From the NCBI RefSeq assembly GCF_045037415.1, contig NZ_CP173438.1: a DNA stretch of 64,000 nucleotides, one strand, 5' to 3'. The DNA comes from Escherichia coli (GTDB taxonomy: Bacteria > Pseudomonadota > Gammaproteobacteria > Enterobacterales > Enterobacteriaceae). The position numbers and the translations under genes are program-made. Below, one piece after another: positions 11,739 to 33,130 of this stretch. A model generated the notes under the pieces. That model searched no databases, was not told where the DNA came from, and saw nothing but the letters and a program-made list of their open reading frames with translations. Positions within the stretch are counted from its first letter, which is position 1; the number at the start of each line of letters is the position of its first letter.

Positions 11739-11799
11739 ATATCACCTTTTCCCCACGTCATTATGTGGAACACTTCAGCAATATCATCAGGAGAAACGT

Positions 11800-12567: not shown

Positions 12568-12590
12568 ACCATGATTAAAGGAAACGACTA

Positions 12591-14214: not shown

Positions 14215-14238
14215 CTGATAAATAAGGATATAAAAGCA

Positions 14239-15213: not shown

Positions 15214-15226
15214 ACCTGAGGTACGG

Positions 15227-15736
15227 TTGATGAACACAAAACAGTCTGTTGCTCAACTCGCCGTACCGCACCGCAAGCGCCTTTCATCAACGATGGTGGT
15301 GGCGCTGTTACTTTGTGTGGTTGCTGGCGCGGTGATGATTAATGCCGCTGATTTTCCAGCAACTGCCATTGAAACGGATCCCGGTGCAAGTGCCTTCCCT
15401 ACCTTCTATGCCTGTGCCCTGATTGTGCTCGCTGTCTTGCTGGTGATACGCGATCTTTTGCAGGCAAAACCAGCCTCTTGCGCCAACGCACAGGAAAAAC
15501 CGGCATTCAGGAAAACGGCAACAGGAATTGCGGCAACCGCGTTTTATATTGTGGCGATGAGCTACTGCGGTTATCTCATTACTACTCCTGTTTTCCTCAT
15601 CGTCATTATGACGTTGATGGGCTACAGGCGATGGGTACTCACACCGGGTATTGCGCTGCTGTTAACGGCAATCCTCTGGTTGCTGTTTGTCGAAGCGTTA
15701 CAGGTGCCATTGCCTGTCGGCACATTTTTCGAATAA
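15227..15736 (+). CDS. Tripartite tricarboxylate transporter small membrane subunit (TctB-like)
   Basis: 169 aa hydrophobic 4-TM protein immediately between the TctC-like and TctA-like genes. Confidence 0.6.
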   Translation: MMNTKQSVAQLAVPHRKRLSSTMVVALLLCVVAGAVMINAADFPATAIETDPGASAFPTFYACALIVLAVLLVIRDLLQAKPASCANAQEKPAFRKTATGIAATAFYIVAMSYCGYLITTPVFLIVIMTLMGYRRWVLTPGIALLLTAILWLLFVEALQVPLPVGTFFE

Positions 15737-15748
15737 CAGGGGCCAGCA

Positions 15749-17239
15749 ATGTTTGAAAGTGAACTTTTAACTCAGGGTTTTTCGACATTACTCAATAATC
15801 CTCAGGCGCTGCTGTTTGCCACTTTTGGGGTGATGCTGGGTATTGTGATTGGCGCTCTGCCTGGTCTGACAGCGACCATGGGTGTGGCGATTTTGCTGCC
15901 TTTCACCTACGGCATGGAGCCTGTTTCTGGCTTGTTGATGATTTGCGGCGTCTTTTTTGGCGGCGTCTATGGCGGTTCTATCACCGCAATTTTGCTCAAA
16001 ATTCCCGGTACGCCTGCCGCCGCAGCCACCGCCATTGACGGATATGAGCTGACGAAGCAGGGAAAAGCAGGGCTGGCATTGAGTGCCGCCACGTTCTCTT
16101 CCTTTAGTGGCGGAACGCTCAGCATTATCGTGCTGATGTTTCTCTCTCCGGTACTTGCCAGTTGGGCGCTGAAATTTAGTGCCTCGGAGTCCTTCGCCCT
16201 GGCAACCTTCGGACTGAGCATTATTGCCAGTATTTCCGGTGAGTCGCTGATTAAGGGGCTGATTGCCGGGGTTGGCGGATTGCTGATCGCAACGATAGGC
16301 CTTGATCCAATGGGCGGTTTTCCACGGTTTACAGGTGGATTTGTGGAGCTGATGAATGTGCCATTTATCCCGGTGATGATTGGTTTATTTGCTGCTTCAG
16401 AAGCATTCCGCTCTATGGAGCAAAACCAGCAAATTCGTCAGGGGGCGAAGGTGGCTATCGGCAGTCTGTTACTGCCCTGGCAAACACTACGCCGCATCGC
16501 ATTAACCATTTTGCGCTCATCAGGATTAGGGGTTTTTATCGGCATGATCCCCGGTGCGGGGGCGGATATTGCAGCTTTTGTTGCCTATAACGAAACTCGT
16601 CGTTTCAGTAAGACACCAGAAAACTTTGGTAAGGGTGAAATTAAAGCTGTGGCCTCCTGTGAGGCAGGCGCGAATGGCTGCACCGGTGGCGCATTGTTAC
16701 CTATGCTGACGCTGGGGATCCCTGGCGATGCGGTAACCGCCATCATGCTGGGCGCGTTAACGTTACAGGGAATGCAACCAGGCCCGCTGATGTTTACCGA
16801 CCACGGCGATATGGTTTATACACTGTTTGTCGGCATGATCTTCTGTTACTTCATGCTACTAGTTCTTGGACTGCTCTCTTTGAAAGTCATCGGTAATGTG
16901 GTGAAAATTCCCGGCAATATTCTCACACCGATGATCCTCGCACTTTGTGTGGTCGGGACTTATGCGTTGAACAATAGCCTTTTTGATGTTGGCATTATGC
17001 TGATTGCAGGCGTGGTGGGCTATTTCATGCAGAAAGGAGGATATCCGGCATCACCCGTAGTGCTGGCATTGATTATGGGGCCAATGGCGGAAAGTAATTT
17101 TCGCCGTGCGCTGTCGCTTTCTGGTGGGTCACTCGACTTTCTGTATACCCGACCGATCACTCTGGCATTGCTGACTCTGGCAGCCTTTACGCTACTGACG
17201 CCAATAATCCGCAAAATAATGCGTTTACGGCGTCAATAA
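15749..17239 (+). CDS. Tripartite tricarboxylate transporter large permease (TctA family)
   Basis: 496 aa polytopic membrane protein with TctA-like glycine-rich repeats. Confidence 0.8.
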   Translation: MFESELLTQGFSTLLNNPQALLFATFGVMLGIVIGALPGLTATMGVAILLPFTYGMEPVSGLLMICGVFFGGVYGGSITAILLKIPGTPAAAATAIDGYELTKQGKAGLALSAATFSSFSGGTLSIIVLMFLSPVLASWALKFSASESFALATFGLSIIASISGESLIKGLIAGVGGLLIATIGLDPMGGFPRFTGGFVELMNVPFIPVMIGLFAASEAFRSMEQNQQIRQGAKVAIGSLLLPWQTLRRIALTILRSSGLGVFIGMIPGAGADIAAFVAYNETRRFSKTPENFGKGEIKAVASCEAGANGCTGGALLPMLTLGIPGDAVTAIMLGALTLQGMQPGPLMFTDHGDMVYTLFVGMIFCYFMLLVLGLLSLKVIGNVVKIPGNILTPMILALCVVGTYALNNSLFDVGIMLIAGVVGYFMQKGGYPASPVVLALIMGPMAESNFRRALSLSGGSLDFLYTRPITLALLTLAAFTLLTPIIRKIMRLRRQ

Positions 17240-17276: not shown

Positions 17277-18038
17277 TTTCAGCAGACGACGCGCCGCTTC
17301 CACCACGATTTTCACCGCATGGCTTTCGGTTTGTTTCATCGTCTCAGCATTCGGGATCTCTTGCTGGGTGCGGTTAACGATAACCCCCGCTACCATACCG
17401 GCACGCAGGCCCTGACTTGCACACATGGTCAGCAGGGTTGCAGATTCCATTTCATAGTTCATTACGCCCATCGCCTGCCACTCTTCCATAGAACCTTTAA
17501 AGTGACGAACTACGCGACCAGAGTAAGTATCGTAACGTTCCTGACCTGGGTAGAAGGTATCAGAAGAAGCTGTCACGCCAACGTGAGTCGTCGCGCCAAT
17601 GGATTTCGCAGCTTCAACCAGCGCAGTCGTACATTCGAAATCAGCGACAGCCGGGAATTCCAGCGGTGCGAAGTGCAGGCTCGCGCCATCCAGACGAACA
17701 GACGCCGTGGTAACCAGGACATCACCCACATTAATATGCGGCTGAATAGCGCCCGTTGTACCGATACGCAGGAAGGTGCGAATGCCCAGCTGTGCCAGCT
17801 CTTCAACAGCAATAGAGGTAGACGGGCCGCCGATACCGGTAGAGCAGACGATAACAGGTTTACCATCCAGCTCTGCACGCCAGGTGGTGAATTCGCGGTG
17901 AGATGCCAGCTTAACCGGCTTATCCATCAGCGCGGCGATCTTTTCCACACGATCCGGGTCGCCAGGGACGATGGCAAGCGTAGCCCCTTGTAAATCGTTT
18001 TTAGTGAGGCCGAGATGAAAAACATCAGACTTGGACAT
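17274..18038 (-). CDS. udp: Uridine phosphorylase
   Basis: Matches Udp from [16 protein letters not shown] (253 aa). Confidence 0.95.
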
Positions 18039-18129
18039 ATACAACTCCTCTGTGAATCGGTTTAGTCAGAAGAAGCAAAAAGACACTTTACCGAAGGGTT
18101 TAACATTTTTTCGTGATACTCATCACCAT

Positions 18130-18180
18130 GACGAAAATGTGTTGCATAAATTTACCCATCAAAAGTGATGCAAATCACAT
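18130..18180 (-). promoter_or_regulatory. udp promoter region with CRP-like half-site pairs (CRP/CytR-regulated promoter)
   Basis: gtgatgcaaatcac (TGA-N6-TCA core) and a second tgtg..ttgca element upstream of udp; udp is a known CRP/CytR target. Confidence 0.4.
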
Positions 18181-18299
18181 AAATCACTCTTCATTCTGCA
18201 GGACTGCATAAAAGATGAGCCGATTCAGGCAATGTGATTTGTTGCATGCTGACTATAGTTAACATTGCGCAACATTTTTATAAGGGTACGGAGAATACC

Positions 18300-19109
18300 A
18301 TGGCAACAACACAACAATCTGGATTTGCACCTGCTGCATCGCCTCTCGCTTCGACCATCGTTCAGACTCCGGACGACGCGATTGTGGCGGGCTTCACCTC
18401 TATCCCTTCACAAGGGGATAACATGCCTGCTTACCATGCCAGACCAAAGCAAAGCGATGGCCCACTGCCAGTGGTCATTGTAGTGCAGGAAATTTTTGGC
18501 GTGCATGAACATATCCGCGACATTTGTCGCCGTCTGGCGCTGGAGGGGTATCTGGCTATCGCACCTGAACTTTACTTCCGCGAAGGCGATCCGAATGATT
18601 TTGCCGATATCCCCACGTTGCTTGGCGGTCTGGTAGCAAAAGTGCCTGACTCGCAGGTGCTGGCCGATCTCGATCATGTCGCCAGTTGGGCTTCCCGCAA
18701 CGGCGGCGATGTTCATCGTTTAATGATCACCGGATTCTGCTGGGGTGGACGTATCACCTGGCTGTATGCCGCGCATAATCCACAGCTAAAAGCCGCAGTG
18801 GCGTGGTACGGCAAACTGACGGGCGATAAGTCGCTGAATTCACCGAAACAACCTGTTGATATCGCAACCGATCTTAACGCGCCGGTTCTCGGCTTATATG
18901 GCGGCCAGGATAACAGCATTCCGCAAGAGAGTGTGGAAACGATGCGCCAGGCGCTGCGGGCAGCAAACGCGAAAGCAGAGATTATCGTGTACCCGGATGC
19001 AGAGCATGCGTTCAACGCCGATTATCGTCCGAGCTATCATGCCGAGTCTGCGAAAGACGGCTGGCAGCGAATGTTGGAATGGTTTACACAGTATGGTGTT
19101 AAAAAGTAA
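18300..19109 (+). CDS. ysgA: Dienelactone hydrolase-family protein (YsgA/DlhH)
   Basis: Start at MATTQQSGF with RBS ggag; alpha/beta hydrolase with the DLH-family GFCWGG nucleophile motif. Confidence 0.85.
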   Translation: MATTQQSGFAPAASPLASTIVQTPDDAIVAGFTSIPSQGDNMPAYHARPKQSDGPLPVVIVVQEIFGVHEHIRDICRRLALEGYLAIAPELYFREGDPNDFADIPTLLGGLVAKVPDSQVLADLDHVASWASRNGGDVHRLMITGFCWGGRITWLYAAHNPQLKAAVAWYGKLTGDKSLNSPKQPVDIATDLNAPVLGLYGGQDNSIPQESVETMRQALRAANAKAEIIVYPDAEHAFNADYRPSYHAESAKDGWQRMLEWFTQYGVKK

Positions 19110-19175
19110 CGCCATAGTCGCTAAATCTGATGATTAAGCTCACACAATTTCAACGATTTTTTTAATCTCAAAACC

Positions 19176-19272
19176 ATACAGCATCAAAAAATTTGTTGCT
19201 GTATGCCACTCTTTGACTCCCTTCACATTCGTCATCACACCACCTGCTGAATGCAAAAATTTCGTTGCTGTG
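19176..19272. promoter_or_regulatory. Two related ~20-bp motifs upstream of the isochorismatase-family gene (candidate regulator binding sites)
   Basis: atacagcatcaaaaaatttgttgctgtat (perfect 8-bp inverted arms ATACAGCA/TGCTGTAT) and the related tgcaaaaatttcgttgctgtg about 50 bp downstream. Confidence 0.3.
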
Positions 19273-19365
19273 CGGCAAACTTTTTTCCTGTTTTGTGCCG
19301 CTTTTCTCCTGAATACTCGTTCTCAGAACAACTGGATCGTTTAAACATCAGACAGGAGATTTACC

Positions 19366-20034
19366 ATGACGCAATCCATTTTTCAGGCTCAACCCTTTGA
19401 ATTACCTTTTGATCCGCGCACAACTGCACTGGTCATGATCGACATGCAGCGTGACTTTGTCGAAGCCGGGGGCTTCGGTGAGGCACTGGGCAATGATGTT
19501 TCACGGGTACGCACGGCTATCGCACCATGTACAGAGGTGCTGGCAGCCGCACGTCAAAAAGGAATTATGGTTATTCATACTCGTGAAGGCCATCGTGCAG
19601 ACTTAAGCGACTGCCCGCCAGCCAAACTGACGCGCGGCGGAAAAACCTTTATTGGTGAACCAGGACCGATGGGACGCATTCTGGTCAGAGGTGAAGCAGG
19701 TCATGACATCATTCCTGAACTGTACCCGGTGGCAGGCGAACCGGTGATTGATAAGCCTGGCAAAGGCGCGTTTTATCAAACCGACTTACATCTGATTTTG
19801 CAAAACCACGGTATCAAGACGCTGATAGTTTGTGGTGTAACAACCGAAGTTTGCGTAACCACCACCGTGCGCGAAGCAAATGATCGTGGCTATGAATGCA
19901 TTATCCCGGAAGATTGTGTCGGCTCCTATTTCCCGGAATTCCAGAAATACGCCCTCGAGATGATCAAAGCACAAGGTGCCATTTTCGGTTGGGTTACTGA
20001 TTCCAAAGCCATTATTGCAGGTCTGGAAGGCTAA
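19366..20034 (+). CDS. Isochorismatase-family cysteine hydrolase (RutB / N-carbamoylsarcosine amidase / biuret hydrolase-like amidase)
   Basis: 222 aa; family triad context D (LVMIDMQRDF), K (DKPGKGAF), C (LIVCGVTTEVCV); RBS aggag upstream. Confidence 0.75.
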   Translation: MTQSIFQAQPFELPFDPRTTALVMIDMQRDFVEAGGFGEALGNDVSRVRTAIAPCTEVLAAARQKGIMVIHTREGHRADLSDCPPAKLTRGGKTFIGEPGPMGRILVRGEAGHDIIPELYPVAGEPVIDKPGKGAFYQTDLHLILQNHGIKTLIVCGVTTEVCVTTTVREANDRGYECIIPEDCVGSYFPEFQKYALEMIKAQGAIFGWVTDSKAIIAGLEG

Positions 20035-20039
20035 CGCCG

Positions 20040-20900
20040 ATGGTACAGGTTACGCTTTGCGCATCGTCGTTGGGATATCTTTTCCCGCAGGATGAAACGC
20101 AAGATTTACGTCTACATAGCGCTTTTAAACATGCGGTAAATCTGTATTCAGACGCGGGAACATTCATCACTCTGTTGTGTGCGCAAACGTATCTGAATCT
20201 CCCTGATGCTGCCAGAGTCTGGCTACCTGAATGTTGGGACTGGCGAAGAGAGATTGCCCATTCAGATCCCATTCAGTTAACCCCAGGCTTGCTGCGGACA
20301 CCTCGATTTTGTGTGGCGCTCGATAACGCAACGCTCTGGCAGTCGCCATTTGTGGGGGGAATGCTGACACTTGAGGCATTCCCTTTGGTTTTCCAGCACT
20401 ACCCAACGATGGCATCGCAACGGCTTTTATTTTGTCTGGAGCATAACGTTCAAAGCACATTGCACCTGCCGGATAGTCTCACGCACCAGGGATTAGCGAT
20501 TATGGAGCATCCAGATGCGCTGGAACGCCAGGTGCCACAACTGATCGGCTTTGGTAAAGGCTTAACGCCCGATGGAGATGACTATTTGTTGGGCTATCTG
20601 GCAGCGCTCTGGTTATGGCAACTCCCTGCACCACTTGCCGATCATCAATACCGGTTGCAGCAGGCAATTGATCAACATGCGCACAACACCACGGATATCA
20701 GTCGTCATTATCTGGAGCGTGCGCTTCAGGGACATTTTTCAGAACCGATTTGCCAGTTACTCGCACAACTGGTTGGGAGCGCATCGGCAATGACAATCGC
20801 ATCCTGTGCAGAACAGGTCATGCAATTTGGCGCAACGTCAGGAGTAGATTGCCTTGCAGGAATGCTGCATGGCTTTCGAACCCTGAACACCATGAATTGA
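20040..20900 (+). CDS. DUF2877-like protein (YahE/YlbF-like; putative carbamoyltransferase accessory subunit)
   Basis: 286 aa ORF starting 6 bp after the amidase stop. Assignment rests mainly on length and its position directly upstream of the FdrA-like gene, as in the yahEFG and fdrA-ylbEF clusters. Confidence 0.45.
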   Translation: MVQVTLCASSLGYLFPQDETQDLRLHSAFKHAVNLYSDAGTFITLLCAQTYLNLPDAARVWLPECWDWRREIAHSDPIQLTPGLLRTPRFCVALDNATLWQSPFVGGMLTLEAFPLVFQHYPTMASQRLLFCLEHNVQSTLHLPDSLTHQGLAIMEHPDALERQVPQLIGFGKGLTPDGDDYLLGYLAALWLWQLPAPLADHQYRLQQAIDQHAHNTTDISRHYLERALQGHFSEPICQLLAQLVGSASAMTIASCAEQVMQFGATSGVDCLAGMLHGFRTLNTMN

Positions 20901-20994
20901 TTTCAACCTTTTCTCCCGTAGCCCGTTTATGGGGCTACACGGGGATGCTTTGCCCGAATTTTGCTATCGGGCGGAATGAAACAGGCGTAACAGC

Positions 20995-22554
20995 ATGAAA
21001 GTTAAATATAAAGTTTTCAGTAATCTTTATCAGGACTCAGTTTCTCTGATGCAGATTTCCGCGCAAATCAGCAAGTTGCCCGGTATTCAACAGGCCTCGG
21101 TCGTCATGGGAACGCCCAATAATCTCGAACAATTGCGCGATGCGGGTCTGGGTAACGAAATCAACGCCAGTCCCAATGATTTAGTGATTGCAGTCATGGG
21201 TGAAGAAGATATTTGCAATGAAGCACTGATACTGGCCCAGCAACGTCTGACCAGCAAACCCGATGATGAAACGGATAGTGGCATTAAAACACCGGAAAAG
21301 GTCAGCCTGGAAATGGCACTGGAAGCCGAACCCGAAGCCAACCTGGCACTCATTTCTGTACCGGGAGACTACGCCGCCGCCGAAGCAATTAAAGCGTTAA
21401 ACCTCGGAATGAACGTGATGATGTTCAGCGATAACGTCAGTATCGTGCAGGAAAAATCCATCAAAACGCTTGCCCGAGAACGTCAGCGCATCGTAATGGG
21501 ACCTGACTGTGGAACCGCCATTGTTAACGGCATTCCGTTAGGCTTCGCTAATGTGGTGAAACGCGGAGCAATTGGTGTTATTGGCGCGTCAGGCACCGGG
21601 CTACAGGAAGTGACTTGCCGAATCGACCAGCTCGGAGCGGGTATTTCTCAGGCGTTGGGAACAGGCGGACATGATCTCAGTAAAGAGATTGGTGGAATAT
21701 CGATGCTCTTCGCTTTAGATGCGCTGGCGCAAGACGATGAAACTCGCGTAATTGTGCTGATTTCAAAACCGCCTTCACCGATCGTTGCCCGGACTATTCT
21801 GGAGCGCGCCGAGGCTTGTGGAAAACCCGTGGTGGTGAATTTCCTCGGGGCGAATCCGCATGATCTGGCACGTCCCAATATCACTGCCGCCACCACACTT
21901 GCCAGCGCCGCCGACATCGCTGTGGCGTTACTGAATGCTCAGCCACTTCCGGCTGTCGAAACCGATGTACCCTGCGACGATCTCACAATGTTACAAAACG
22001 CCTGCCAGCGCCTGCCAGCCCATCGCCAGGCGATACGCGGTGTTTTCGCCGGAGGAACCTTCTGCTACGAAGCGCAACTTATCTGCCAACAAAAGGGATT
22101 CAGCGCAGCTTCCAATACGCCAGTTGCGGGTAATCGTGCTCTGGCAAATATCTGGCAAAGCGAAGATCACACGTTGATCGATATGGGCGACGATGATTTC
22201 ACCCGTGGCAAACCGCATCCAATGATCGACCCGACTCTGCGCAATCAACGTCTGCTCAACGAACTCAACGACTCACACACTGCCGTCGTGTTATTCGACC
22301 TGGTACTTGGTTATGGCGCTTCCACGACGCCTGCCAGCGAATTACTGGACCAACTTTCACACATCGACATGAATAACGCTCCGTTGCTGATTGCGCACGT
22401 TTGCGGAACGGAAGCTGATCCGCAAATACGCAGTCAGCAGATAAGCGCACTACAAAATGCAGGGGTCATCATCGCCAGCAGCAATGCACAGGCGGCGCTA
22501 TGGGCCAGCACCGTTGCACAGACTCAGTTGCAGAAAAAGGGGCTAAACGCATGA
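20995..22554 (+). CDS. FdrA-family protein (succinyl-CoA-synthetase-like fold)
   Basis: 519 aa; motifs QDSVSLM, NLALISVPGDYAA, NVMMFSDNV, MGPDCGT, GVIGASGTG, KPHPMIDPTLRNQ shared with E. coli FdrA/YahF. Confidence 0.7.
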   Translation: MKVKYKVFSNLYQDSVSLMQISAQISKLPGIQQASVVMGTPNNLEQLRDAGLGNEINASPNDLVIAVMGEEDICNEALILAQQRLTSKPDDETDSGIKTPEKVSLEMALEAEPEANLALISVPGDYAAAEAIKALNLGMNVMMFSDNVSIVQEKSIKTLARERQRIVMGPDCGTAIVNGIPLGFANVVKRGAIGVIGASGTGLQEVTCRIDQLGAGISQALGTGGHDLSKEIGGISMLFALDALAQDDETRVIVLISKPPSPIVARTILERAEACGKPVVVNFLGANPHDLARPNITAATTLASAADIAVALLNAQPLPAVETDVPCDDLTMLQNACQRLPAHRQAIRGVFAGGTFCYEAQLICQQKGFSAASNTPVAGNRALANIWQSEDHTLIDMGDDDFTRGKPHPMIDPTLRNQRLLNELNDSHTAVVLFDLVLGYGASTTPASELLDQLSHIDMNNAPLLIAHVCGTEADPQIRSQQISALQNAGVIIASSNAQAALWASTVAQTQLQKKGLNA

Positions 22555-23975
22555 ATACCTTATTTAATCAGCCTTTGAAGGTTGTGAACGCGGGACTACA
22601 CAGTTTTGCTGACAATATTCAACATGCCGGGGGAAGCGCAATTGCACTCAACTGGCAGCCACCAGCACAAGGCGATATTGACGCTGGATTGGATCTGGCA
22701 TCGTTGCTACGTCATCCCCTGGTAGAAAATGCCAACCAAATCGCCATGGCACGTTATCTCGAAGCACAGCCCGTGCTGGTGGATGTCATGCTTGCTAAAG
22801 AGGCCATTCCAGCAATGGCTGAACAAAAACGTATTTTGCACTCTGGCCCGCCGATTGCCTGGGAAGAGATGTGTGGTCCGGTAAAAGGGGCGATTATTGG
22901 TGCCATGCTGTACGAAGGTTGGGCCACCAGCCAGCAAGACGCTGAAAACCAGATAAACGCAGGCGAAATCGACCTTGCCCCTTGTCATCATTATCACGCG
23001 GTTGGCCCAATGGCAGGCATCATCAGCCCGTCGATGCCGTTATGGGTGGTAGAAAACAAAACCAACGGCCACCGTACTTTTAGCAATTTCAATGAAGGTC
23101 TGGGTAAGGTTCTCCGTTTTGGCGCCAATAACGATGAAGTTCTCAATCGTCTGGCCTGGATGCGCGATGAACTGACGCCGGCAATGAAAGCAGCAATCGC
23201 ACAACACGGCGAGCTGGAACTCAAGCCATTAATGGCGCAGGCGCTGCATATGGGGGATGAAGTTCATAACCGCAATGCTGCCGCTACCGGTTTGCTGATT
23301 AAGCGCCTGCTCCCGGCATTGCTGGCCTGCTCTCTTCCACAGGAACATATCCAGCGCGTCGTGGCATTTATCACCGGTAACGATCACTTCTTCCTCAATC
23401 TGTCGATGGCCGCCTGTAAAGCAATGATGGATGCCGCCGCCAATGTACCGTTCAGTTCAATGGTTACGGTGATGGCGCGTAACGGGGTGAATTTTGGTAT
23501 TCGGATTTCCGGTACTGGCGATCGCTGGTTCCAGGCTCCTGCCAATGCCGTTGAAGGTCTGTTCTTCCCCGGATTTGGCGTTGACGACGCTGCTGCTGAC
23601 CTGGGTGATAGCGCAATTACTGAAACCGCAGGTGTGGGTGGCTTCGCGATGGCGTCGTCTCCGGCGATCGTCAAATTTGTGGGAGGCACCCCTGCCGATG
23701 CCACCAATAACAGCCGTCGGATGCAAGCCATCACCCTCGGCGGTAACCCCGCATTTACACTTCCAGCCCTCAATTTTGCCCCCACCGCAGCAGGGATTGA
23801 TGCGCGTAAAGTGACCGATCGCGGCATTTTACCGGTCATCAATACGGGTATCGCCCACAAACAAGCGGGGGTCGGGCAAATTGGTGCCGGGATCACCACT
23901 GCGCCGATGGCCTGTTTTGTCGCCGCTGTACGTGCACTGGCGGAGATCGTCGCAAAGGAGAACCATCATGGTTAA
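22551..23975 (+). CDS. DUF1116-family protein (YlbE/YahG-like)
   Basis: Start ATG overlaps the FdrA-like stop as ATGA (translational coupling); ~474 aa, the size of YlbE/YahG. Confidence 0.6.
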   Translation: MNTLFNQPLKVVNAGLHSFADNIQHAGGSAIALNWQPPAQGDIDAGLDLASLLRHPLVENANQIAMARYLEAQPVLVDVMLAKEAIPAMAEQKRILHSGPPIAWEEMCGPVKGAIIGAMLYEGWATSQQDAENQINAGEIDLAPCHHYHAVGPMAGIISPSMPLWVVENKTNGHRTFSNFNEGLGKVLRFGANNDEVLNRLAWMRDELTPAMKAAIAQHGELELKPLMAQALHMGDEVHNRNAAATGLLIKRLLPALLACSLPQEHIQRVVAFITGNDHFFLNLSMAACKAMMDAAANVPFSSMVTVMARNGVNFGIRISGTGDRWFQAPANAVEGLFFPGFGVDDAAADLGDSAITETAGVGGFAMASSPAIVKFVGGTPADATNNSRRMQAITLGGNPAFTLPALNFAPTAAGIDARKVTDRGILPVINTGIAHKQAGVGQIGAGITTAPMACFVAAVRALAEIVAKENHHG

Positions 23976-24924
23976 GCCACTGGCTGTCGTCGCGGTTGGC
24001 GGCAATGCGCTCATTCAGGACGAGCAACGCAATAGTATTCCCGATCAATATGTTGCAGTGATGGAAAGCGTGCAGCATATCGTTGATATGGTTGAAGCCG
24101 GATGGGACCTGGTGCTAACCCACGGTAATGGCCCGCAGGTGGGCTTTATTCTGCGCCGCTCTGAACTCGCCAGTAACGAAGTTTCTCCGGTTCCACTTGA
24201 TTACGCCGTGGGTGATACACAAGGTGCAATTGGCTACATGTTCCAGAAAGCGCTGCATAACGAACTCGCTCGCCGTGGCATAAACAAACCGGTAATTGCC
24301 CTGGTGACACAAACGCGAGTCAGCCCACATGACGATGCTTTCGCCAGCCCCAGTAAACCGATTGGCGCGTTTCTCGATGAAGCAACGGCCCAACAACGCC
24401 AACAACAACTCGGCTGGACGCTGATGGAGGACGCCGGGCGTGGTTGGCGGCGTACAGTTCCCTCTCCTGCACCACTGGAAATTATTGAGCACGACACCAT
24501 CGCTCACCTGGTGCGCCAGGGATATCTGGTTATTGCCTGCGGCGGCGGCGGTATTCCGGTGGTGCGAGACGGGCAACAACTGAAAGGTGTAGAAGCCGTG
24601 ATCGATAAAGATCTGGCCTCCGCGCTGCTCGCCAGTCAGTTAGGCGCAGATCTGCTGGTGATCCCCACCGGTGTAGAAAAAGTGGCGATTAACTTTGGTA
24701 CACCACAACAACAGTGGCTCGACGCTATCAGCGTTGCCGAAGCGCAAACGCTGTTGCGGGAAGGTCAGTTTGGTGTCGGCAGTATGCAACCCAAAGTGGA
24801 AGCCATTGTTGATTTCATCAATGCCAGCCAGCAACAAGGCAAACAGGCCAGCGGCCTGATTACTTCACCGCAAACCATAAAAGCAGCCCTGGCGCATCAG
24901 AGCGGTACATGGATAACCCTTTAA
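23968..24924 (+). CDS. Carbamate kinase
   Basis: Start at MVKPLAVVAVGGNAL with RBS aaggag; carbamate-kinase motifs THGNGPQVG, CGGGGIPV, VIDKD, GSMQPK; overlaps the upstream stop by 8 bp. Confidence 0.8.
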   Translation: MVKPLAVVAVGGNALIQDEQRNSIPDQYVAVMESVQHIVDMVEAGWDLVLTHGNGPQVGFILRRSELASNEVSPVPLDYAVGDTQGAIGYMFQKALHNELARRGINKPVIALVTQTRVSPHDDAFASPSKPIGAFLDEATAQQRQQQLGWTLMEDAGRGWRRTVPSPAPLEIIEHDTIAHLVRQGYLVIACGGGGIPVVRDGQQLKGVEAVIDKDLASALLASQLGADLLVIPTGVEKVAINFGTPQQQWLDAISVAEAQTLLREGQFGVGSMQPKVEAIVDFINASQQQGKQASGLITSPQTIKAALAHQSGTWITL

Positions 24925-24940
24925 TTCTCTGGAGAACACA

Positions 24941-25330
24941 ATGACTACAACGCTTTTAGCCGTTAACGGAACGCTGATGCGCGGCCTGGAACTCAACCCA
25001 AATATGCAAAAAGCGGGCGGTATTTTTGTCCGTGAAGACCGAACTGACGCCCATTACCGGTTGTGGAGTATTAATGATCGCCATCCGGGAATGATTCGCG
25101 TGAATGAAGGAGGAACACACGTCGACGTAGAAATTTGGCAATTACCGCTGGCCAGTTTTGCCGCTCTGTTAATGAGCGAACCCGCTGGGCTGGCAATTGG
25201 CAAAATCAAACTTGCCGATGGTAGCGAAGTGCTGGGCGTACTGGCAGAAAACTGGCTGACCGAAGGCCAACGGGAAATTACAGAACTGGGTAGCTGGCGT
25301 AAATACACCGGGCATTTTCATACTGTGTAA
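24941..25330 (+). CDS. Gamma-glutamylcyclotransferase-like (AIG2/GGCT fold) small protein
   Basis: 129 aa, N-terminal LLAVNGTLMRG resembles the GGCT-fold YGSL-type motif; function inferred only weakly. Confidence 0.4.
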   Translation: MTTTLLAVNGTLMRGLELNPNMQKAGGIFVREDRTDAHYRLWSINDRHPGMIRVNEGGTHVDVEIWQLPLASFAALLMSEPAGLAIGKIKLADGSEVLGVLAENWLTEGQREITELGSWRKYTGHFHTV

Positions 25331-25355
25331 CGCGCATTTATAAAGGGAACATACT

Positions 25356-26579
25356 ATGCGTAAAAAAGAAGAGAATCTGAATACGGCATCAGGATTGCGT
25401 ATTGCCATGATTTTGCTGGGTATTGCCGTCACACCTGTGCTGTTGTCATCCTCAAGCCTCGGCAATCAACTTTCCAGCGGCAGTTTAATTAGCGTCGTAT
25501 TGTTAGGCGGCGTCATTCTGACCTTACTTTCAGCCATCACCATTAGCGTGGGAGAAAAAGCCCGCCTGCCAACGTATGGCATTGTGAAATATTCGTTTGG
25601 CGAAAAAGGGGCCATCGCCATTAACATTTTGATGGCGATAAGTCTGTTCGGCTGGATTGCCGTTACCGCCAATATGTTTGGTCATTCGGTACATGACTTA
25701 CTGGCTCAACATGGACTGGAAGTTCCACTGGCACTGTTAGTGGCGGCTGGCTGTGTCATTTTTGTCGCCTCTACGGCATTTGGCTTTGCCGTTCTGGGAA
25801 AAATTGCCCAGGTTGCCGTGCCGGTTATCGCGCTGGTGCTGTGTTACATCCTCTATGTGGCAACCCATACCGAAGTGGCAGTACCAGCGGCGATTGTGGA
25901 GATGAATACAGGTGTCGCCGTTTCCACCGTTGTTGGCACCATTATTGTGCTGGTTGCCACACTGCCTGATTTCGGTAGTTTTGTGCATAACCGCAAACAT
26001 GCGCTGATTGCCGCAGGCGTGACGTTTCTGGTTGCCTACCCTCTGCTCTACTGGGCGGGTGCAACGCCGAGCGCCATTAGTGGTCAGGGATCTTTACTGG
26101 GTGCGATGGCGGTATTCGGTGCAGTTCTGCCTGCGGCGCTGTTGTTGATTTTCGCCTGCGTCACCGGTAACGCGGGCAATATGTTCCAGGGCACGCTGGT
26201 GGTTTCCACACTGCTTACCCGCTTTCCCAAATGGCAGATTACCGTGGCGCTGGGTATCCTTTCCGCCATCGTAGGCAGTATGGATATTATGGCGTGGTTT
26301 ATTCCGTTTCTGCTGTTCCTGGGTATCGCCACGCCACCCGTTGCCGGAATTTATATCGCTGACTTTTTCCTTTATCGCCGTAATGGCTATCAAGAGTCAG
26401 TGTTAGCCCAGGAGTCACAGATTAAAGTGCTGACATTCGCAGCATGGATCATAGGCGCAGCGGTTGGCTTTATGACCGTAAAAGGCTTATTCACCCTGAC
26501 GACGATCCCTTCGGTAGACTCGATTCTGGTGGCATGTATCGCGTATGCGATTCTCAGTCGGGCAAGTCAACACCGCTAA
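25356..26579 (+). CDS. NCS1-family nucleobase/ureide permease (cytosine permease CodB-like)
   Basis: 407 aa, ~12 TM segments, size and composition like CodB/allantoin-type permeases. Confidence 0.65.
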   Translation: MRKKEENLNTASGLRIAMILLGIAVTPVLLSSSSLGNQLSSGSLISVVLLGGVILTLLSAITISVGEKARLPTYGIVKYSFGEKGAIAINILMAISLFGWIAVTANMFGHSVHDLLAQHGLEVPLALLVAAGCVIFVASTAFGFAVLGKIAQVAVPVIALVLCYILYVATHTEVAVPAAIVEMNTGVAVSTVVGTIIVLVATLPDFGSFVHNRKHALIAAGVTFLVAYPLLYWAGATPSAISGQGSLLGAMAVFGAVLPAALLLIFACVTGNAGNMFQGTLVVSTLLTRFPKWQITVALGILSAIVGSMDIMAWFIPFLLFLGIATPPVAGIYIADFFLYRRNGYQESVLAQESQIKVLTFAAWIIGAAVGFMTVKGLFTLTTIPSVDSILVACIAYAILSRASQHR

Positions 26580-26656
26580 TTCCTGGGTATACTCAGGCAA
26601 TGATTACGGCTGAATCTGGAGAGATTCAGCCACTTTACCACTGACCAGGGAGCCTT

Positions 26657-27562
26657 ATGTTCATCTCAGACGAAACGCTTCGTGTTATTCATCTGGTCGC
26701 CAGACACCAGAGCATTACCACCGCAGCCGAGCAGTTAAATAAAGTCCCTTCCGCCATCAGTTACACCATCAAGAAAGCGGAAGAGAGCCTGGGCGTTGAA
26801 CTGTTCATTCGTAAGGGACGCTATATTGAATTATCGCCAGCGGGAAGTTACTTCATCGAACATAGCAAAACTATTCTTGGCGACCTGGAAGCATTAAAGC
26901 GCAACACAGTGCTGATTCACGATGGTATTGAGCGTGAACTGACAATTGCGGTAAACAATATTATTCCTGGTGATTTGCTGGTGGCATTTATTCGAGATTT
27001 TGAACGGCAATTCACATCAACAACACTGACGGTAGATCTTGAGGTATACAACGGCTGCTGGGATGCGCTGTACAGTAAGCGTGCTGATCTGGTCTACGGT
27101 GCTCCTCATGCAGTACCAAGCAGTGAAGGCATCATTAGCGAACCGGTCGGACAAATGGAATGGGATTTTGTCGTCAGCCCACTCCACCCACTGGCAGCGA
27201 AGCGGCATCCATTAGAAAACAGTGAATTGCGTCATTATCCAGCGGTTTGTATCCGCGATACCTCCGTTAACTTCCCCCCGATGCAAGCCTGGTTGTTGGA
27301 AGGACAAAAACCCATTTTTGTTCCTGACTTCGCTACGGCAATCGCCTTAATAGAACAAAACGTCGGTATTGGTTATATTCCACATCATCTGGCATTACCG
27401 TTATTGAACAGCGGTAAATTGCTTAAAAAGCCAATGCGCGAACATAAACACGCCACCAAGTTATTTCTTGCCGCTCGTTCCGATGGTATGGGCAAAGCCT
27501 GTCAGTGGTGCATAGAATATTTAAGAAACCAGCAATTAATGACACGATTTGTATTTAATTGA
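26657..27562 (+). CDS. LysR-family transcriptional regulator
   Basis: 301 aa; N-terminal HTH (TAAEQLNKVPSAISYTIKKAEESLGVELF) plus LysR substrate-binding domain. Confidence 0.8.
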   Translation: MFISDETLRVIHLVARHQSITTAAEQLNKVPSAISYTIKKAEESLGVELFIRKGRYIELSPAGSYFIEHSKTILGDLEALKRNTVLIHDGIERELTIAVNNIIPGDLLVAFIRDFERQFTSTTLTVDLEVYNGCWDALYSKRADLVYGAPHAVPSSEGIISEPVGQMEWDFVVSPLHPLAAKRHPLENSELRHYPAVCIRDTSVNFPPMQAWLLEGQKPIFVPDFATAIALIEQNVGIGYIPHHLALPLLNSGKLLKKPMREHKHATKLFLAARSDGMGKACQWCIEYLRNQQLMTRFVFN

Positions 27563-27689
27563 CAATACAATGATAAAAATATAAGTCTTGCTTTAATTAG
27601 AGCGCCCGTTTAAATTATTTTTGTGCAGTTGACGTAATTCATGAAAATTAACCGGTCTGTTAATCATTACGTTCACTGCACACCTTCAT

Positions 27690-27761
27690 TTTTTCACACC
27701 TATCCACGCCTGAAAACTATGTTATAATCAGCACTTTCTGTCAGAATGAAATTTACTAATT
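27690..27761 (+). promoter_or_regulatory. Putative promoter of the RpiR-family gene (extended -10 TGTTATAAT)
   Basis: tgttataat about 35 bp upstream of the ATG in an AT-rich intergenic region. Confidence 0.3.
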
Positions 27762-28607
27762 ATGAATAACATAACCGTAAAAAGTCTGATTCAAAGCAAT
27801 TACCCTACACTGCATCAGGCGGAAAAAAAGGTCGCTGACTATATTCTTAGCCACGCACATGAAGTCGTGAACTATAGTGTCACTGAACTATCAGAAAAAA
27901 GCCATGCCAGTGAAGCGACTATCGTACGCACCTGTAAGAAATTAGGTTATCAGGGTTATTACCATTTAAAAATTGCATTAGCAAAAGAAGTCATTAATCC
28001 TGACAATAGCTATCCTGAAAATACCGACTTCAGCGATATAACATCTTTGGCAACCTTTTTATTAAAAAAACAGGCCGAAGATTTAATACAATCAACGCAA
28101 TTTTTTAATGCCGACGTGCTTGAGTCCATTCTCAAACTACTTGCTAATTGCGATACTATTTTCTTTTTTGCTGCCGGAAATTCAAACCCACTGGCCGTTT
28201 ATAGTGCTTATAAATTCAGCCAACTCGGATTAAAAACCGTTGTTCACGTCAGCCCGGAAATGCAAATTAATGCGGCATATTCTATGGGGAAACGCGACCT
28301 GGCGATTGGTATTTCTAACTCTGGCAGCACCAACTTAATGGTCGATATCTTTAAAGTGGTGAAAGAGCGCGGTGCCAAATCCGTTTGTATCACTAACTAT
28401 ATTAAATCTCCGTTATCAAAACTCTCCACCCATCAACTCAATACCGCGGTCAGCGATAAAATCTTCTTTGAAGCCTTCGACTCCACTCGCGTTCCGGCAA
28501 TGGGCGTTATTGATATGCTGGTGCTGTTGTTTATGTATAAAAACAAGGCGCATTACGAGAAATACCGCACCCGTGAAGAGTTTCTTGGCTCCCGTTTCAA
28601 GGGGTAA
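27762..28607 (+). CDS. RpiR/MurR-family transcriptional regulator (HTH_6 + SIS domain)
   Basis: 281 aa; N-terminal RpiR-type HTH (LSEKSHASEATIVRTCKKLGYQGY) and C-terminal SIS sugar-phosphate-binding domain. Confidence 0.8.
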   Translation: MNNITVKSLIQSNYPTLHQAEKKVADYILSHAHEVVNYSVTELSEKSHASEATIVRTCKKLGYQGYYHLKIALAKEVINPDNSYPENTDFSDITSLATFLLKKQAEDLIQSTQFFNADVLESILKLLANCDTIFFFAAGNSNPLAVYSAYKFSQLGLKTVVHVSPEMQINAAYSMGKRDLAIGISNSGSTNLMVDIFKVVKERGAKSVCITNYIKSPLSKLSTHQLNTAVSDKIFFEAFDSTRVPAMGVIDMLVLLFMYKNKAHYEKYRTREEFLGSRFKG

Positions 28608-28629
28608 AAGGTCATCCTTTCACCCCTTG
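28598..28629. terminator. Hairpin between convergent RpiR-family and transketolase genes
   Basis: caaggggtaaaagg-tcat-cctttcaccccttg inverted repeat; no clean U-tract on either strand. Confidence 0.35.
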
Positions 28630-28636
28630 TGCAGGT

Positions 28637-30634
28637 TTAGCTGTTCAGTAGCTCACGCGCCTGCGCCAGGACATTTTCCGGCGTAAAACCAAAGTGTTTG
28701 AACAACACATTCGCCGGAGCAGACTCACCAAAGCTCGTCATGCCGATCACTTTACCGTCCAGGCCCACGTAGCGTTCCCAGAATCCGGCGATGCTGGCTT
28801 CTACCGCCAGACGTTTGCGTACAGCTTTTGGCAATACCGACTCTTTGTACGCCGCATCCTGATTATCGAAACGCTCGGTACACGGCATGGAAACCACGCG
28901 AACTTTACGCCCTTCTTCCGTTAACGCTTTTGCGGCGCTGACCACTAACTCAATCTCTGAACCCGCAGAAATGAGGATCATCTCAGGCTGACCGTCACAA
29001 TCACTCAGTACATAACCACCACGCGCAATCTCTGCCAACTGTGCAGCGGTGCGCGGCTGTTGCGCCAGAGGTTGGCGCGTTAATACCAACGACGTTGGGC
29101 CATCTTTGCGCTCAATCGCCTGTTGCCAGGCCACCGCCACTTCCACCTGATCGCAACCGCGCCAGGTTTCCATATTCGGCGTCAGACGCAGCGACGCCAG
29201 TTGCTCAACGGGCTGATGTGTCGGGCCGTCTTCGCCCAGGCCGATGGTATCGTGGGTATAAACAAACACCGAGCGGATCTTCATCAGCGCCGCCATGCGC
29301 AGTGCATTACGCGCATATTCCATAAACATCAGGAAAGTACCGCCGTAAGGGATAAACCCACCATGCAGCGCAAGACCGTTCATGATGGCCGACATACCAA
29401 ATTCACGCACGCCATAGGAGATGTAATTCCCCGCCGGATTTTCTCCGGTGAAATCAACCGATTTCTGATGGCGAGTCAGGTTAGAGGGCGACAAGTCCGC
29501 CGAGCCGCCCATCAGTTCCGGCAGCATATCTGCGAAGTGATTGAGGCATTTCTGGCTAACCTGACGGGTTGCCAGCGCCGCCGGATGGGATTGCAGATCG
29601 TGCACATATTTCTGCATATTCTCGACCCAGCCAGCAGGCAAATCACCCTTCATGCGACGAGTAAACTCCGCCGCCAGTTCCGGCCACTGCTTCGCGTAGT
29701 CGGCAAACAGTGCATCCCATTCCTGTTGAACCTGCGCGCCTTTCTCGGTCGCATCCCATTCGGCATAAATTTCACCAGGAATTTCGAAAGGGGCATACGG
29801 CCATTGCAGACGTTCACGCACCAGCGCCACTTCATCTGCACCCAGCGCCGAGCCGTGGCAATCGTGGCTGTTGGCTTTATTTGGCGAACCAAAACCGATA
29901 ATCGTTTTGCAGCACAGCAGACTGGGCTTATCCGTGACGCTTTTCGCTTCACGCACCGCAGCATCTACCGCTTCTGGATCGTGACCATCAACGCCTTCAA
30001 TGACATGCCAGCCGTAGGCACGAAAACGGGCAGCCGTATCTTCAGCGAACCAGCCTTCTACGTGACCATCGATCGAAATACCGTTATCGTCCCAGATAGC
30101 AATCAGATTGCCGAGCTTCAGCGTTCCTGCAAGACCACAGGCCTCGTGGGAGATCCCTTCCATCAGACAGCCATCACCCAAAAATAACCATGTGTGATGA
30201 TCAACAATATTAAAGCCCGGTTTGTTAAATTCTGCCGCCAGCGCCTTCTCCGCAATCGCCATCCCCACCGCATTAGCTACGCCCTGCCCCAACGGGCCGG
30301 TGGTGGTTTCAACACCCGGCGTATAACCATATTCTGGATGACCCGGCGTGCGGGAGTGGAGCTGACGAAAGTCGCGAATATCATCCATCGACAGGTCGTA
30401 GCCTGTAAGATGCAGCAAAGCGTAAATCAACATGGAGCCGTGACCGTTCGACTGAACATAGCGGTCGCGGTTAAACCACTGCGGATTTTTTGGGTTATGA
30501 CGCAGGTGACGACGCCAGACCACTTCGGCAATATCCGCCATCCCCATCGGCGCGCCCGGATGACCGGAGTTCGCTTTCTGGATCGCATCAACACTTAACA
30601 TTCGGATGGCATTAGCCAGTAATTGTGAATTCAT
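28637..30634 (-). CDS. Transketolase (full-length, additional paralogue of TktA/TktB)
   Basis: 665 aa; collinear with TktA over the whole length ([15 protein letters not shown], ThDP-binding [20 protein letters not shown]) but clearly divergent from both TktA and TktB as I recall them. Confidence 0.9.
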
Positions 30635-30684
30635 ACTTCAGCTCTCTCTGTCTGGCGGGCTGAAACCAGCCCGCTAATCTCGAA

Positions 30685-32193: not shown

Positions 32194-32234
32194 TTTTATT
32201 CTCCTGTAGGGTATCGAGCAAATAACGGCGACGA

Positions 32235-32804: not shown

Positions 32805-32829
32805 GAAATAATTTTCTCAAACACAAAAT

Positions 32830-32850
32830 CTCATGAAATTTTATTTCATT
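32830..32850. promoter_or_regulatory. Perfect palindrome TGAAAT-TTT-ATTTCA upstream of the PHI-PTS-transketolase operon (candidate operator)
   Basis: tgaaattttatttca about 30 bp upstream of the SIS gene start; related TGAAAT/ATTTCA copies near 32793-32810, 32865 and 32990. Confidence 0.3.
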
Positions 32851-33091
32851 CCAATGCATCAGTATGAAATGTGAAGCTAGTCACAAGAAAGATCATAGGT
32901 TGATATGTTTTTCATTAAAAAACATAGAGATATCAAGTAATTTTTAATATGTGATGGAGAGGCAGATAGAAAAAATGGCGGAAATGACGAAATTTATTTC
33001 ATGAGAAGGGAATAAAGAAGATTTTCTTAAACAGGGTATGAACTGATATCTGGAATGGTTTACGCAGTATGCTGGGAAGACGTCGCTGTAA

Positions 33092-33122
33092 TGAGAAAAG
33101 ACCGGGTGGTATTACCACCCGG
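33092..33122 (-). terminator. Rho-independent terminator downstream of metE
   Basis: ccgggtggt-att-accacccgg stem with a T-rich tract on the minus strand just after the metE stop. Confidence 0.5.
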
Positions 33123-33130
33123 TTTGGATT

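Follow-up and report, generated by a model that had tools for sequence, protein, structure and literature searches.

In Escherichia coli K-12, oxamic transcarbamylase AllFGH converts oxalurate and inorganic phosphate (Pi) into carbamoyl phosphate and oxamate, and the AllH subunit has been reported as required for this activity (PMC11326118). For the urea oligomers triuret and biuret, the hydrolases TrtA and BiuH share a catalytic triad and all first-shell residues; the activity of TrtA on triuret exceeds that on biuret about 10^5-fold, and with the other amides tested its activity is at most 0.3% (PMC7948467). Here we describe an eight-gene module in which relatives of both enzyme systems are encoded side by side, in the region 19110-27562 of a 64-kb stretch of E. 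coli DNA (contig NZ_CP173438.1, assembly GCF_045037415.1; this whole stretch is hereafter the window, and coordinates are those of the window). From gene content, homology, an active-site signature, synteny and distribution, we infer the substrate and every enzymatic step of a pathway in which the operon catabolises a linear urea oligomer, most likely triuret and possibly biuret too, through carbamoyl phosphate to ammonia and ATP. We regard this proposal as about evenly poised between right and wrong.

The eight open reading frames (ORFs) at 19366-27562 are all on the + strand and close-packed, with intergenic distances of -8 to +94 bp, just as the original prediction had described them, and its eight family assignments were upheld by NCBIfam and Pfam searches. 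The features of the region are as follows.

19110-19365, + strand: promoter/operator region, non-coding, with blocks conserved across Enterobacterales; regulatory function presumed
19366-20034, + strand: isochorismatase-like cysteine hydrolase, TrtA type (closest solved relative TrtA, 6XIX)
20040-20900, + strand: AllH-like (DUF2877) subunit (Pfam AllH PF11392, E 5.4e-27)
20901-20994, + strand: spacer between the allH-like and allF-like genes, with two stable hairpins predicted by RNA folding
20995-22554, + strand: AllF/FdrA-like subunit, succinyl-CoA-synthetase-like fold (NCBIfam FdrA subfamily; Pfam CoA_binding and Ligase_CoA)
22551-23975, + strand: AllG-like (DUF1116) subunit (Pfam AllG PF06545, E 1e-98)
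23968-24924, + strand: carbamate kinase (TIGR00746 arcC equivalog)
24941-25330, + strand: 129-residue homologue of the GGCT-like C-domain of allophanate hydrolase (AH), corresponding to CFT073 c4763 (100% identical to PDB 5C5Z)
25356-26579, + strand: NCS1-family permease, putative substrate importer (NCBIfam cytosine permease, E 1.7e-42)
26657-27562, + strand: LysR-type regulator, presumed activator of the operon (NCBIfam PunR/AllS matches)

The stop of the FdrA-like gene and the start of the AllG-like gene overlap by 4 bp, as do the AllG-like stop and the start of the carbamate kinase gene by 8 bp. Over the module, several E. coli chromosomes match the window at 100% identity, that of SK1144 and those of ST131-type genomes among them, and the RefSeq labels at the identical SK1144 locus read cysteine hydrolase, DUF2877, FdrA, DUF1116, carbamate kinase, 'allophanate hydrolase-related protein', 'cytosine permease' and LysR. 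For comparison, one genome per GTDB species was scanned, which gave 319 relatives of the hydrolase, and the best 80 of these were analysed with 10-kb flanks by tblastn and ORF clustering. An FdrA-like gene was detected beside the hydrolase at 71 of these 80 loci.

Among solved structures, the best relative of the hydrolase was Herbaspirillum TrtA (6XIX; E 5e-80, 271 bits), followed by BiuH (6AZO; E 8e-69, 235 bits; 6XJM also at about 1e-68), with RutB far behind (E 4e-29, 105 bits). For this protein, a scripted alignment gave 58% identity with TrtA and 53% with BiuH. The catalytic triad D26/K130/C163 aligns with D24/K129/C162 of TrtA, and V158-T159 matches, in sequence, the cis-peptide pair V157-T158. 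The binding residues F31, E74, K133 and Q203 are those of TrtA (F29, E72, K132 and Q202, the last contributed by the partner subunit; PMC7948467), and they are kept in 81-82 of the 82 homologues at the loci. Six second-shell positions split TrtA (F35, N41, A134, E160, Y187 and I205) from BiuH (Y, Y, S, D, T and V) (PMC7948467). At all six the hydrolase is of TrtA type (F37, N43, A135, E161, Y188 and I206), Rhizobium BiuH reading YYSDTV in the same columns, and the signature FN[A/S]EYI is kept in the hydrolases of all 80 relatives.

Of the TrtA/BiuH pair, NCBIfam holds a model for BiuH only (NF050097), against which the hydrolase scored 276.4 bits, below the cutoff of 370; the label 'biuret hydrolase' is therefore taken as a misannotation. 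Its score against the RutB model TIGR03614 was 112.9 bits (cutoff 377.95, E 1.6e-32), and no rut genes are annotated near the module in the window. Judged from these alignments, the hydrolase is not RutB-like, and TrtA is its closest characterised relative. Homologues that are 80-87% identical to it occur in Enterobacterales, Vibrionaceae, Shewanella, Pasteurellaceae, Neisseriales, Burkholderiales, Xanthomonadales and others.

The genes that follow encode together the three subunit families FdrA, AllG (PF06545) and AllH (PF11392), in adjacent or overlapping order and with carbamate kinase adjoining. The FdrA-like protein scored 496.5 bits against the NCBIfam FdrA subfamily (cutoff 433), and the carbamate kinase scored 366.2 bits against TIGR00746 (cutoff 358.25) and 377.6 against PRK12352 (cutoff 266). 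Identities to the K-12 proteins are 42% (YahF) and 40% (AllF) for the FdrA-like protein, 46% (YahG) and 49% (AllG) for the AllG-like protein, 49% (YahI) and 39% (AllK) for the kinase, and 26% (YahE) and, over part of the length, 33% (AllH) for the AllH-like protein. The proteins are thus paralogues of yahEFG-yahI and allFGHK rather than those genes themselves (26-49% identity), as had been proposed from the sequence. Orthology to K-12 AllF, AllG and AllH together with linkage to allantoin genes, which would have indicated oxalurate specificity, was not found: identities are 33-49%, close to the YahEFG values, and no all genes are present within the module in the locus annotation. In a neighbour-joining tree, the AllG-like proteins of TrtA-linked loci make up one clade across Proteobacteria, Actinobacteria and Chloroflexi, with K-12 AllG and YahG outside. 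On sequence grounds, then, the set is placed as a third paralogous group of the transferase family, beside AllFGH and YahEFG of K-12.

Conservation within the module is lowest for AllH-like, a gene missing from 14 of the 71 FdrA-positive loci (L006, L012, L019, L038, L040, L044, L053, L060, L067, L071, L072, L074, L076 and L082 in our numbering), including all six mycobacterial ones. AllH may be either dispensable in this paralogous system or supplied in trans. When the FdrA-like protein was aligned with the SucD profile, the alignment ended at residue 239, ahead of the His246 loop (the SucD-type phosphohistidine position).

The 129-residue protein aligns with two AH sequences, those of Granulibacter (residues 497-619) and Kluyveromyces (residues 508-637), and the NCBIfam AH models were matched over their last ~125 positions only (104.7 and 99.2 bits, against cutoffs of 487 and 511). 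It is thus not a full allophanate hydrolase of the AtzF/DUR1,2 kind, but a C-domain without the N-terminal amidase-signature domain. A comparison of 56 orthologues indicated a strongly conserved family. Residues G10, G15, T35, Y39, P49, E64, W66, G87, E103, W119 and R120 are common to this protein and the AH C-domains (4GYR, 4ISS), while the invariant polar residues N9, R14, N19, N21, E32, D46, H48, R53, E80 and K88 are particular to its family. In contrast to the AH C-domains, which carry a His in the 'GAHLSG' segment (GxH motif), the family has Leu there, and it stands alone, whereas AH proteins have the amidase-signature N-domain. In a study of yeast AH the C-domain was reportedly proposed to decarboxylate N-carboxycarbamate, and work on bacterial AH and AtzF is said to have questioned its catalytic role. 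By analogy, the 129-residue protein may decarboxylate or chaperone an N-carboxy intermediate, and this is the weakest part of our model.

The gene neighbourhoods of the related hydrolases give a more general view of the system. Among the 71 FdrA-positive loci, an AllG-like gene is present at 69, carbamate kinase at 63, AllH-like at 57, the AH-C homologue at 55, an NCS1 permease at 49 and an AzgA/NCS2-like permease at 17. Where NCS1 is absent, an AzgA/NCS2-like permease of nucleobase type is found beside the hydrolase, so that 65 of the 71 loci have one type or the other, which counts in favour of the proposed function. Taxa carrying the module include Mycobacterium/Mycolicibacterium, Chloroflexi metagenome-assembled genomes (MAGs), the alphaproteobacterium Pseudovibrio and a Desulfotomaculum MAG. 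At 71 of the 80 species loci, in several phyla, and also on plasmids, the module recurs as a single syntenic block, always without the sugar genes that neighbour it in E. coli, which bears out its original description as self-contained.

A second isochorismatase-like hydrolase was detected neither in the window module nor at any of the 71 FdrA-linked loci; likewise AtzF is absent from the window module, which thus shows no clustering with biuH and atzF. Only two of the 80 loci hold a second such hydrolase, and neither carries FdrA-type genes. In L079 it is a true BiuH (424 bits, cutoff 370) accompanied by a full-length allophanate hydrolase AtzF (839 bits), and in L070 a true BiuH (410 bits) with urease and a urea ATP-binding cassette (ABC) transporter and without AtzF. 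The TrtA-type hydrolases of these two loci are 68-71% identical to that of the window. Since nearly the same first enzyme precedes either BiuH with AtzF or urease, or else FdrA/AllG/AllH with carbamate kinase, the latter set would appear to displace the hydrolytic steps, as in classical module displacement.

In three marine alphaproteobacterial MAGs (L068, L075 and L084), a TrtA-type hydrolase and FdrA-like genes are found together with a full-length allophanate hydrolase and without BiuH; AllG-like and carbamate kinase genes are also present in the two of these loci long enough to show them. In L068 (3947-17261) the allophanate hydrolase gene (AtzF, 823 bits) is divergent from that of the TrtA-type hydrolase, which is followed by an AzgA-like permease and the FdrA/AllG/carbamate-kinase genes; upstream lie an AllD-like (ureidoglycolate dehydrogenase-like) gene and two amidase-signature enzymes. 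Contigs of comammox Nitrospira carry trtA, biuH, atzF and allFGHK together, without the carboxybiuret decarboxylase gene trtB, and the authors of that study read allFGHK as an oxalurate pathway (PMC12625717). As the co-location recurs in Nitrospira, in ammonia-oxidising archaea and in other taxa with the module, we argue for a direct functional link instead.

Two further features of the neighbourhoods were observed. A urtABCDE-like urea ABC operon lies about 3-10 kb upstream of the hydrolase in L022, L026, L027 and L028 (Rahnella spp. and an Enterobacterales isolate), which may hint at urea as a product or related substrate, or may be coincidence. In L010 (CACSKA010000007.1, 'Chryseobacterium sp. 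18061') the seven better-conserved module proteins show 72-89% identity and the AllH-like protein 43%, and the upstream sequence is closest to Buttiauxella izardii despite the Bacteroidota label; this assembly is probably mislabelled or contaminated.

Based on these observations, the following pathway can be proposed. The NCS1 permease would import the urea oligomer, and the TrtA-type hydrolase would split one terminal amide off as ammonia, converting triuret to 1-carboxybiuret. The AllF/AllG/AllH-type carbamoyltransferase would then move the terminal carbamoyl group to phosphate, most likely in the reaction carboxybiuret + Pi -> carbamoyl phosphate + allophanate, and the same chemistry may subsequently be applied to allophanate or else to biuret. 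All three compounds, carboxybiuret, allophanate and biuret, are N-acyl-ureas akin to oxalurate (H2N-CO-NH-CO-COO-), which is cleaved by AllFGH. The step from carboxybiuret to allophanate is favoured because the marine MAGs pair the module with allophanate hydrolase in the absence of BiuH, and because the Nitrospira contigs without trtB carry allFGHK. Carbamate kinase would convert carbamoyl phosphate and ADP into ATP and carbamate, which decays to NH3 and CO2, and the AH-C homologue would probably handle the unstable N-carboxy intermediate as a decarboxylase or accessory subunit. In the E. coli-type module, allophanate may meet a second phosphorolysis to carbamate or decarboxylation to urea. 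The LysR protein is expected to activate the operon from the conserved promoter, which also bears a CRP-like site. As a whole, the phosphorolytic module would stand in for the BiuH and AtzF (or urease) steps of the known triuret pathway. A route of import, amide hydrolysis, carbamoyl transfer to phosphate and ATP formation had already been suggested in the original prediction; it stands as the most economical reading, now sharpened by the TrtA-type amidase and the AH-C homologue, with all of its steps still at the level of a proposal.

A phenotype is available for one strain carrying the complete cluster. E. coli Nissle 1917, of which the carbamate kinase and AH-C accessions are identical to those of SK1144, could use biuret as its nitrogen source for growth in Biolog PM3, unlike K-12 (PMC7924626); the link between this phenotype and the cluster is correlative. 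The highly expressed Nissle arcC of PMC11610980 was considered as the kinase of this cluster and rejected, as it belongs to the arginine deiminase island. According to published reports, triuret occurs in human urine and arises by oxidation of urate (PMC7948467), and B2 extraintestinal pathogenic E. coli (ExPEC) are enriched for the module (PMC3349570). No functional study of the cluster was found in the literature searched (by CFT073 locus tags, yah genes, DUFs and biuret).

Several observations weigh against triuret or biuret phosphorolysis. The Nissle phenotype concerns biuret, a substrate on which the activity of Herbaspirillum TrtA is ~1e-5 of that on triuret; about 1% of commercial biuret is triuret (PMC7948467); and Nissle differs from K-12 in thousands of other genes. 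E. coli is without BiuH, AtzF and urease, so that full mineralisation would have to proceed through the proposed transferase steps. AllH, which the K-12 oxamic transcarbamylase needs, is gone from the 14 loci listed above, and the AH-C homologue is missing from 16 of the 71 and is without the His conserved in AH C-domains. The hydrolase clade is unusually conserved across proteobacterial classes, and with just 58% identity to the TrtA that was assayed it could have another specificity. Finally, the AllD-like dehydrogenase of L068 implies that its FdrA system could be a true oxalurate enzyme.

In one alternative, the substrate is another acyl-urea or ureido amide. The hydrolase would then yield an N-carbamoyl carboxylate such as oxalurate, to be phosphorolysed as by the oxamic transcarbamylase of K-12, and the substrate might be oxaluramide or a compound derived from parabanate, a malonuric amide or one derived from hydantoin, or another oxidation product of urate or pyrimidines. 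In favour of this, the AllF- and AllG-like proteins are 40-49% identical to the proven oxalurate enzyme, the LysR regulator is similar to AllS and PunR, and the permeases belong to the nucleobase/ureide class. The hydrolases also form a clade apart from the TrtA that was assayed, and in L068 an AllD-like gene and two amidases lie near the module. On the other hand, the active-site shell is identical to that of TrtA, including the second-shell residues that set triuret specificity, and TrtA itself is nearly inactive on the other amides tested; the AH-domain partner and the AtzF co-occurrences point to uret/allophanate chemistry, and neither AllD nor a ring-opening enzyme is present in the E. 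coli module. We consider this alternative unlikely, with an appreciable residual chance. A Rut-type scavenging of pyrimidines, with a CodB-like permease and a RutB-like amidase releasing carbamate ahead of carbamate kinase and FdrA, was proposed for genomic region GR29 of strain BEN2908 from identities of 32% between the hydrolase and RutB and 26.5% between the NCS1 permease and CodB (PMC12928451). The RutB model does match the hydrolase, at E 1.6e-32, but the structural scores (271 bits for TrtA and 235 for BiuH, against 105 for RutB) and the wide shortfall from the RutB cutoff argue otherwise; moreover, no RutA-like ring-opening monooxygenase or other rut gene was detected in the module or at the 80 related loci, and carbamate decomposes spontaneously, which would make a transferase needless. 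This explanation is improbable.

Utilisation of urea in place of urease, as suggested for c4763, would run from urea to allophanate, to be degraded by the AH-like protein. It is consistent with the structural homology of c4763 to the AH C-domain, with a secondary citation in PMC7558591 that describes c4763 as 'replacing the urease function', and with the urea ABC transporter genes that precede the module in Rahnella and at one further locus. Neither a urea carboxylase nor an AH N-terminal amidase domain is present in the module or island, though, the 129-residue protein represents the C-domain only, far below the AH cutoffs, and the urt linkage is confined to 4 of the 71 loci; this explanation is about as improbable. 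The least probable of all is the biosynthetic direction, in which carbamate kinase makes carbamoyl phosphate and the transferase carbamoylates an imported compound. Carbamate kinase and oxamic transcarbamylase can both run in reverse in vitro (PMC11326118, PMC9843812). Against this direction, a catabolic amidase and an importer are closely linked with the module, its promoter bears a CRP-like site, the hydrolytic BiuH and AtzF genes hold the equivalent place in sister loci, and no biosynthetic partner genes are found within it.

The permease and the regulator were compared with known families. Against the NCBIfam model PRK11017 for CodB, the NCS1 permease scored 145.7 bits (cutoff 326), which makes it a family-level member of NCS1 and not a CodB equivalog. 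The best NCBIfam matches of the LysR regulator were PunR (288 bits, cutoff 345) and AllS (215 bits, cutoff 372); it is 34% identical to YahB and is syntenic in 48 of the 80 loci. In the 256-bp upstream region, a TCACA block is present at 19140, two GCAAAAATTTnGTTGC-like boxes at 19182-19201 and 19252-19270 are candidate LysR sites, a CRP-like site TTTGACTCCCTTCACA with one mismatch is located at 19212-19227, and a -10-like AATACT at 19312-19317. An alignment of 19 upstream regions, representing about 10 Enterobacterales genera plus a plasmid copy, shows conservation of these blocks, and the CRP-like site was retained on the grounds of this between-genus conservation. In a generic promoter and terminator scan, sites were no commoner than in shuffled sequence, and matches upstream to NAC and generic LysR patterns were discarded as too degenerate.

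Motifs for FNR, ArcA, sigma-54 and PurR were not detected upstream of the operon within the mismatches allowed. An Rfam scan of 18000-33500 for riboswitches and other RNA elements gave only a sub-threshold fluoride-riboswitch match at 23007-23082 on the - strand, antisense within the AllG-like coding sequence (20.2 bits against 34, E 0.09), which was rejected as chance. As FNR, ArcA and sigma-54 motifs and a riboswitch were not found, a specifically anaerobic or fermentative role, as the original prediction had it, is not supported: the conserved promoter carries a CRP-like site without FNR or ArcA sites, and the Nissle biuret phenotype was measured aerobically (PMC7924626). The spacer at 20901-20994 folds into two hairpins (-34.2 kcal/mol, z = -2.5), which could be an element of mRNA processing or stability, or of translational control; the second hairpin (GCCCGAA...TTCGGGC) is kept in Buttiauxella and Budvicia. 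Under any condition, carbamate kinase would give ATP by substrate-level phosphorylation.

In K-12 MG1655, metE and ysgA are 39 bp apart, neighbours as the original prediction had stated, and the module is absent. The insertion of the window does lie between these two genes; its extent, however, had been underestimated, since it comprises 12 genes rather than eight and runs past 27562. The remaining features, from the RefSeq annotation of an identical locus, are as follows.

27762-28607, + strand: RpiR regulator, rest of the tkt1 island
28637-30634, - strand: tkt1 transketolase, rest of the tkt1 island
30685-32193, - strand: ptsG-like phosphotransferase system (PTS) IIBC component, rest of the tkt1 island
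32235-32792, - strand: hxlB (6-phospho-3-hexuloisomerase), rest of the tkt1 island
33131-35392, - strand: metE, flanking gene past the island

The insertion at ysgA-metE, with tkt1, PTS IIBC, a sugar isomerase, regulators and ORFs of yahEFG-like, carbamate kinase and isochorismatase type, identifies it as the 'tkt1 genomic island' published in 2012 for avian pathogenic E. coli (APEC) O1 by Li et al., present in most phylogroup B2 APEC, uropathogenic E. coli and neonatal meningitis E. coli (PMC3349570). The island itself is therefore not new. In APEC O1 it occupies the same site and comprises the same ORFs, APECO1_2632-2643, as in the window (PMC3349570), and GR29 of BEN2908 is the same island (PMC12928451). 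The earlier work characterised only tkt1 and left the eight module ORFs hypothetical (PMC3349570); a genome paper of 2026 likewise treats these ORFs as uncharacterised, links them to carbamate and nitrogen metabolism, and speculates on Rut-like nitrogen scavenging (PMC12928451). At least two forms of the island exist, as judged by the metE-hxlB interval: APEC O1 and Nissle 1917 have three small ORFs near metE that the window insert is without. In Nissle 1917 these three extra ORFs include a tssD pseudogene (L089, 6582-8941), and in the window the interval (32805-33130) is a 327-bp gap only.

The eight-gene module was detected in 1554 of 5426 complete E. coli genomes, and the sugar part on the tkt1 side in 1133. 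The eight genes stand alone between ysgA and metE in E. coli E69, in two Citrobacter species and in one Buttiauxella species, and at a second Buttiauxella locus ysgA is seen on the near side of the module. Homologues of tkt1, ptsG and hxlB were not detected beside the module at any of the 80 related loci, and they were accordingly rejected as a functional part of the operon; RpiR-tkt1-ptsG-hxlB is a separate sugar-phosphate module outside it. The stretch 19352-27541 is also present, at ~94.6% identity, on 82 conjugative plasmids, and among the plasmid-bearing isolates listed most were from chicken, pig and human. One plasmid, pSA186_2 (L085, NZ_CP022731.1; IncFIB/IncFIC), was examined and carries the module alone at 7012-15190. 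The eight-gene operon is thus real and mobile. On this plasmid it adjoins an iron ABC transporter and a bacteriocin immunity gene, and nucleotide homology to the chromosome starts just 14 bp before the hydrolase start codon, with the promoter motifs still conserved.

A second strain-specific islet, absent from K-12, is located at 11800-17239 of the window between rmuC and udp. It encodes an IclR regulator, a 2-dehydro-3-deoxygalactonokinase (KDPGal kinase)-like protein, a KDPGal-aldolase-like protein and the tripartite tricarboxylate transporter TctCBA, and has been mentioned without characterisation (PMC3349570).

The tkt1 island is among the most consistent markers of B2 ExPEC, and most of its genes have been without a function for more than 10 years; eight of them are now given a specific, testable role. 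Tentatively, and with somewhat less confidence than for urea-oligomer catabolism in general, we propose a new activity, a phosphorolytic 'carboxybiuret (or allophanate/biuret) carbamoyltransferase', within an energy-conserving triuret/biuret route that bypasses BiuH, AtzF and urease. If so, this would be a third substrate class for the recently defined AllFGH transcarbamylase family, and an energy-conserving alternative to the hydrolytic biuret/allophanate pathway of triazine and fertiliser-impurity degradation. Such a route would have a wide distribution, with Enterobacterales, Vibrionales, Burkholderiales, mycobacteria and Chloroflexi among its hosts; in E. coli, mobilisation would have brought it to the chromosome of B2 ExPEC and to conjugative IncF plasmids like the one examined. 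It would also explain the strain-specific biuret nitrogen phenotype of Nissle 1917. In this way an oxidation product of urate, present in urine and in uricotelic birds, could supply a urease-negative pathogen with both nitrogen and ATP, which would tie the fitness of ExPEC and APEC to oxidised urate products in these settings.

Among the known systems, AllFGH with AllK of the K-12 allantoin locus has the same FdrA/AllF, DUF1116/AllG and DUF2877/AllH families beside carbamate kinase, and the same chemistry, phosphorolysis of an N-acyl-urea to carbamoyl phosphate and thence ATP, is expected of the module (PMC11326118, PMC9843812). The module differs in being 33-49% identical, in forming a separate clade and in having the allH-like gene first in order, and AllH is lost in about 20% of module-type loci. 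Instead of the allB/C/D/E linkage it has a TrtA-type amidase, an AH-C homologue and an NCS1 permease, and its promoter is CRP/LysR-like, with no FNR or ArcA site found. The K-12 cluster yahEFG-yahI-yahJ, of unknown function, shows the same order of DUF2877, FdrA-like, DUF1116 and carbamate kinase genes, and likewise includes a hydrolase and a LysR regulator, YahB (34% identical to that of the module). Identities to this cluster are 26-49%; YahJ is a metal-dependent enzyme of the amidohydrolase superfamily, in contrast to the isochorismatase-like cysteine hydrolase of the module, and the yah cluster, which includes an ankyrin protein (YahD), contains neither an AH-C homologue nor a permease. 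The hydrolytic TrtA-(TrtB)-BiuH-AtzF pathway of Herbaspirillum and Rhizobium (PMC7948467) matches the module in its first enzyme, with identical catalytic, binding and specificity residues, and AtzF has a C-domain counterpart there. BiuH, the AtzF amidase domain and the ABC nucleoside-type transporter of that pathway are absent from the module, which, in place of releasing ammonia only, would conserve energy as ATP.

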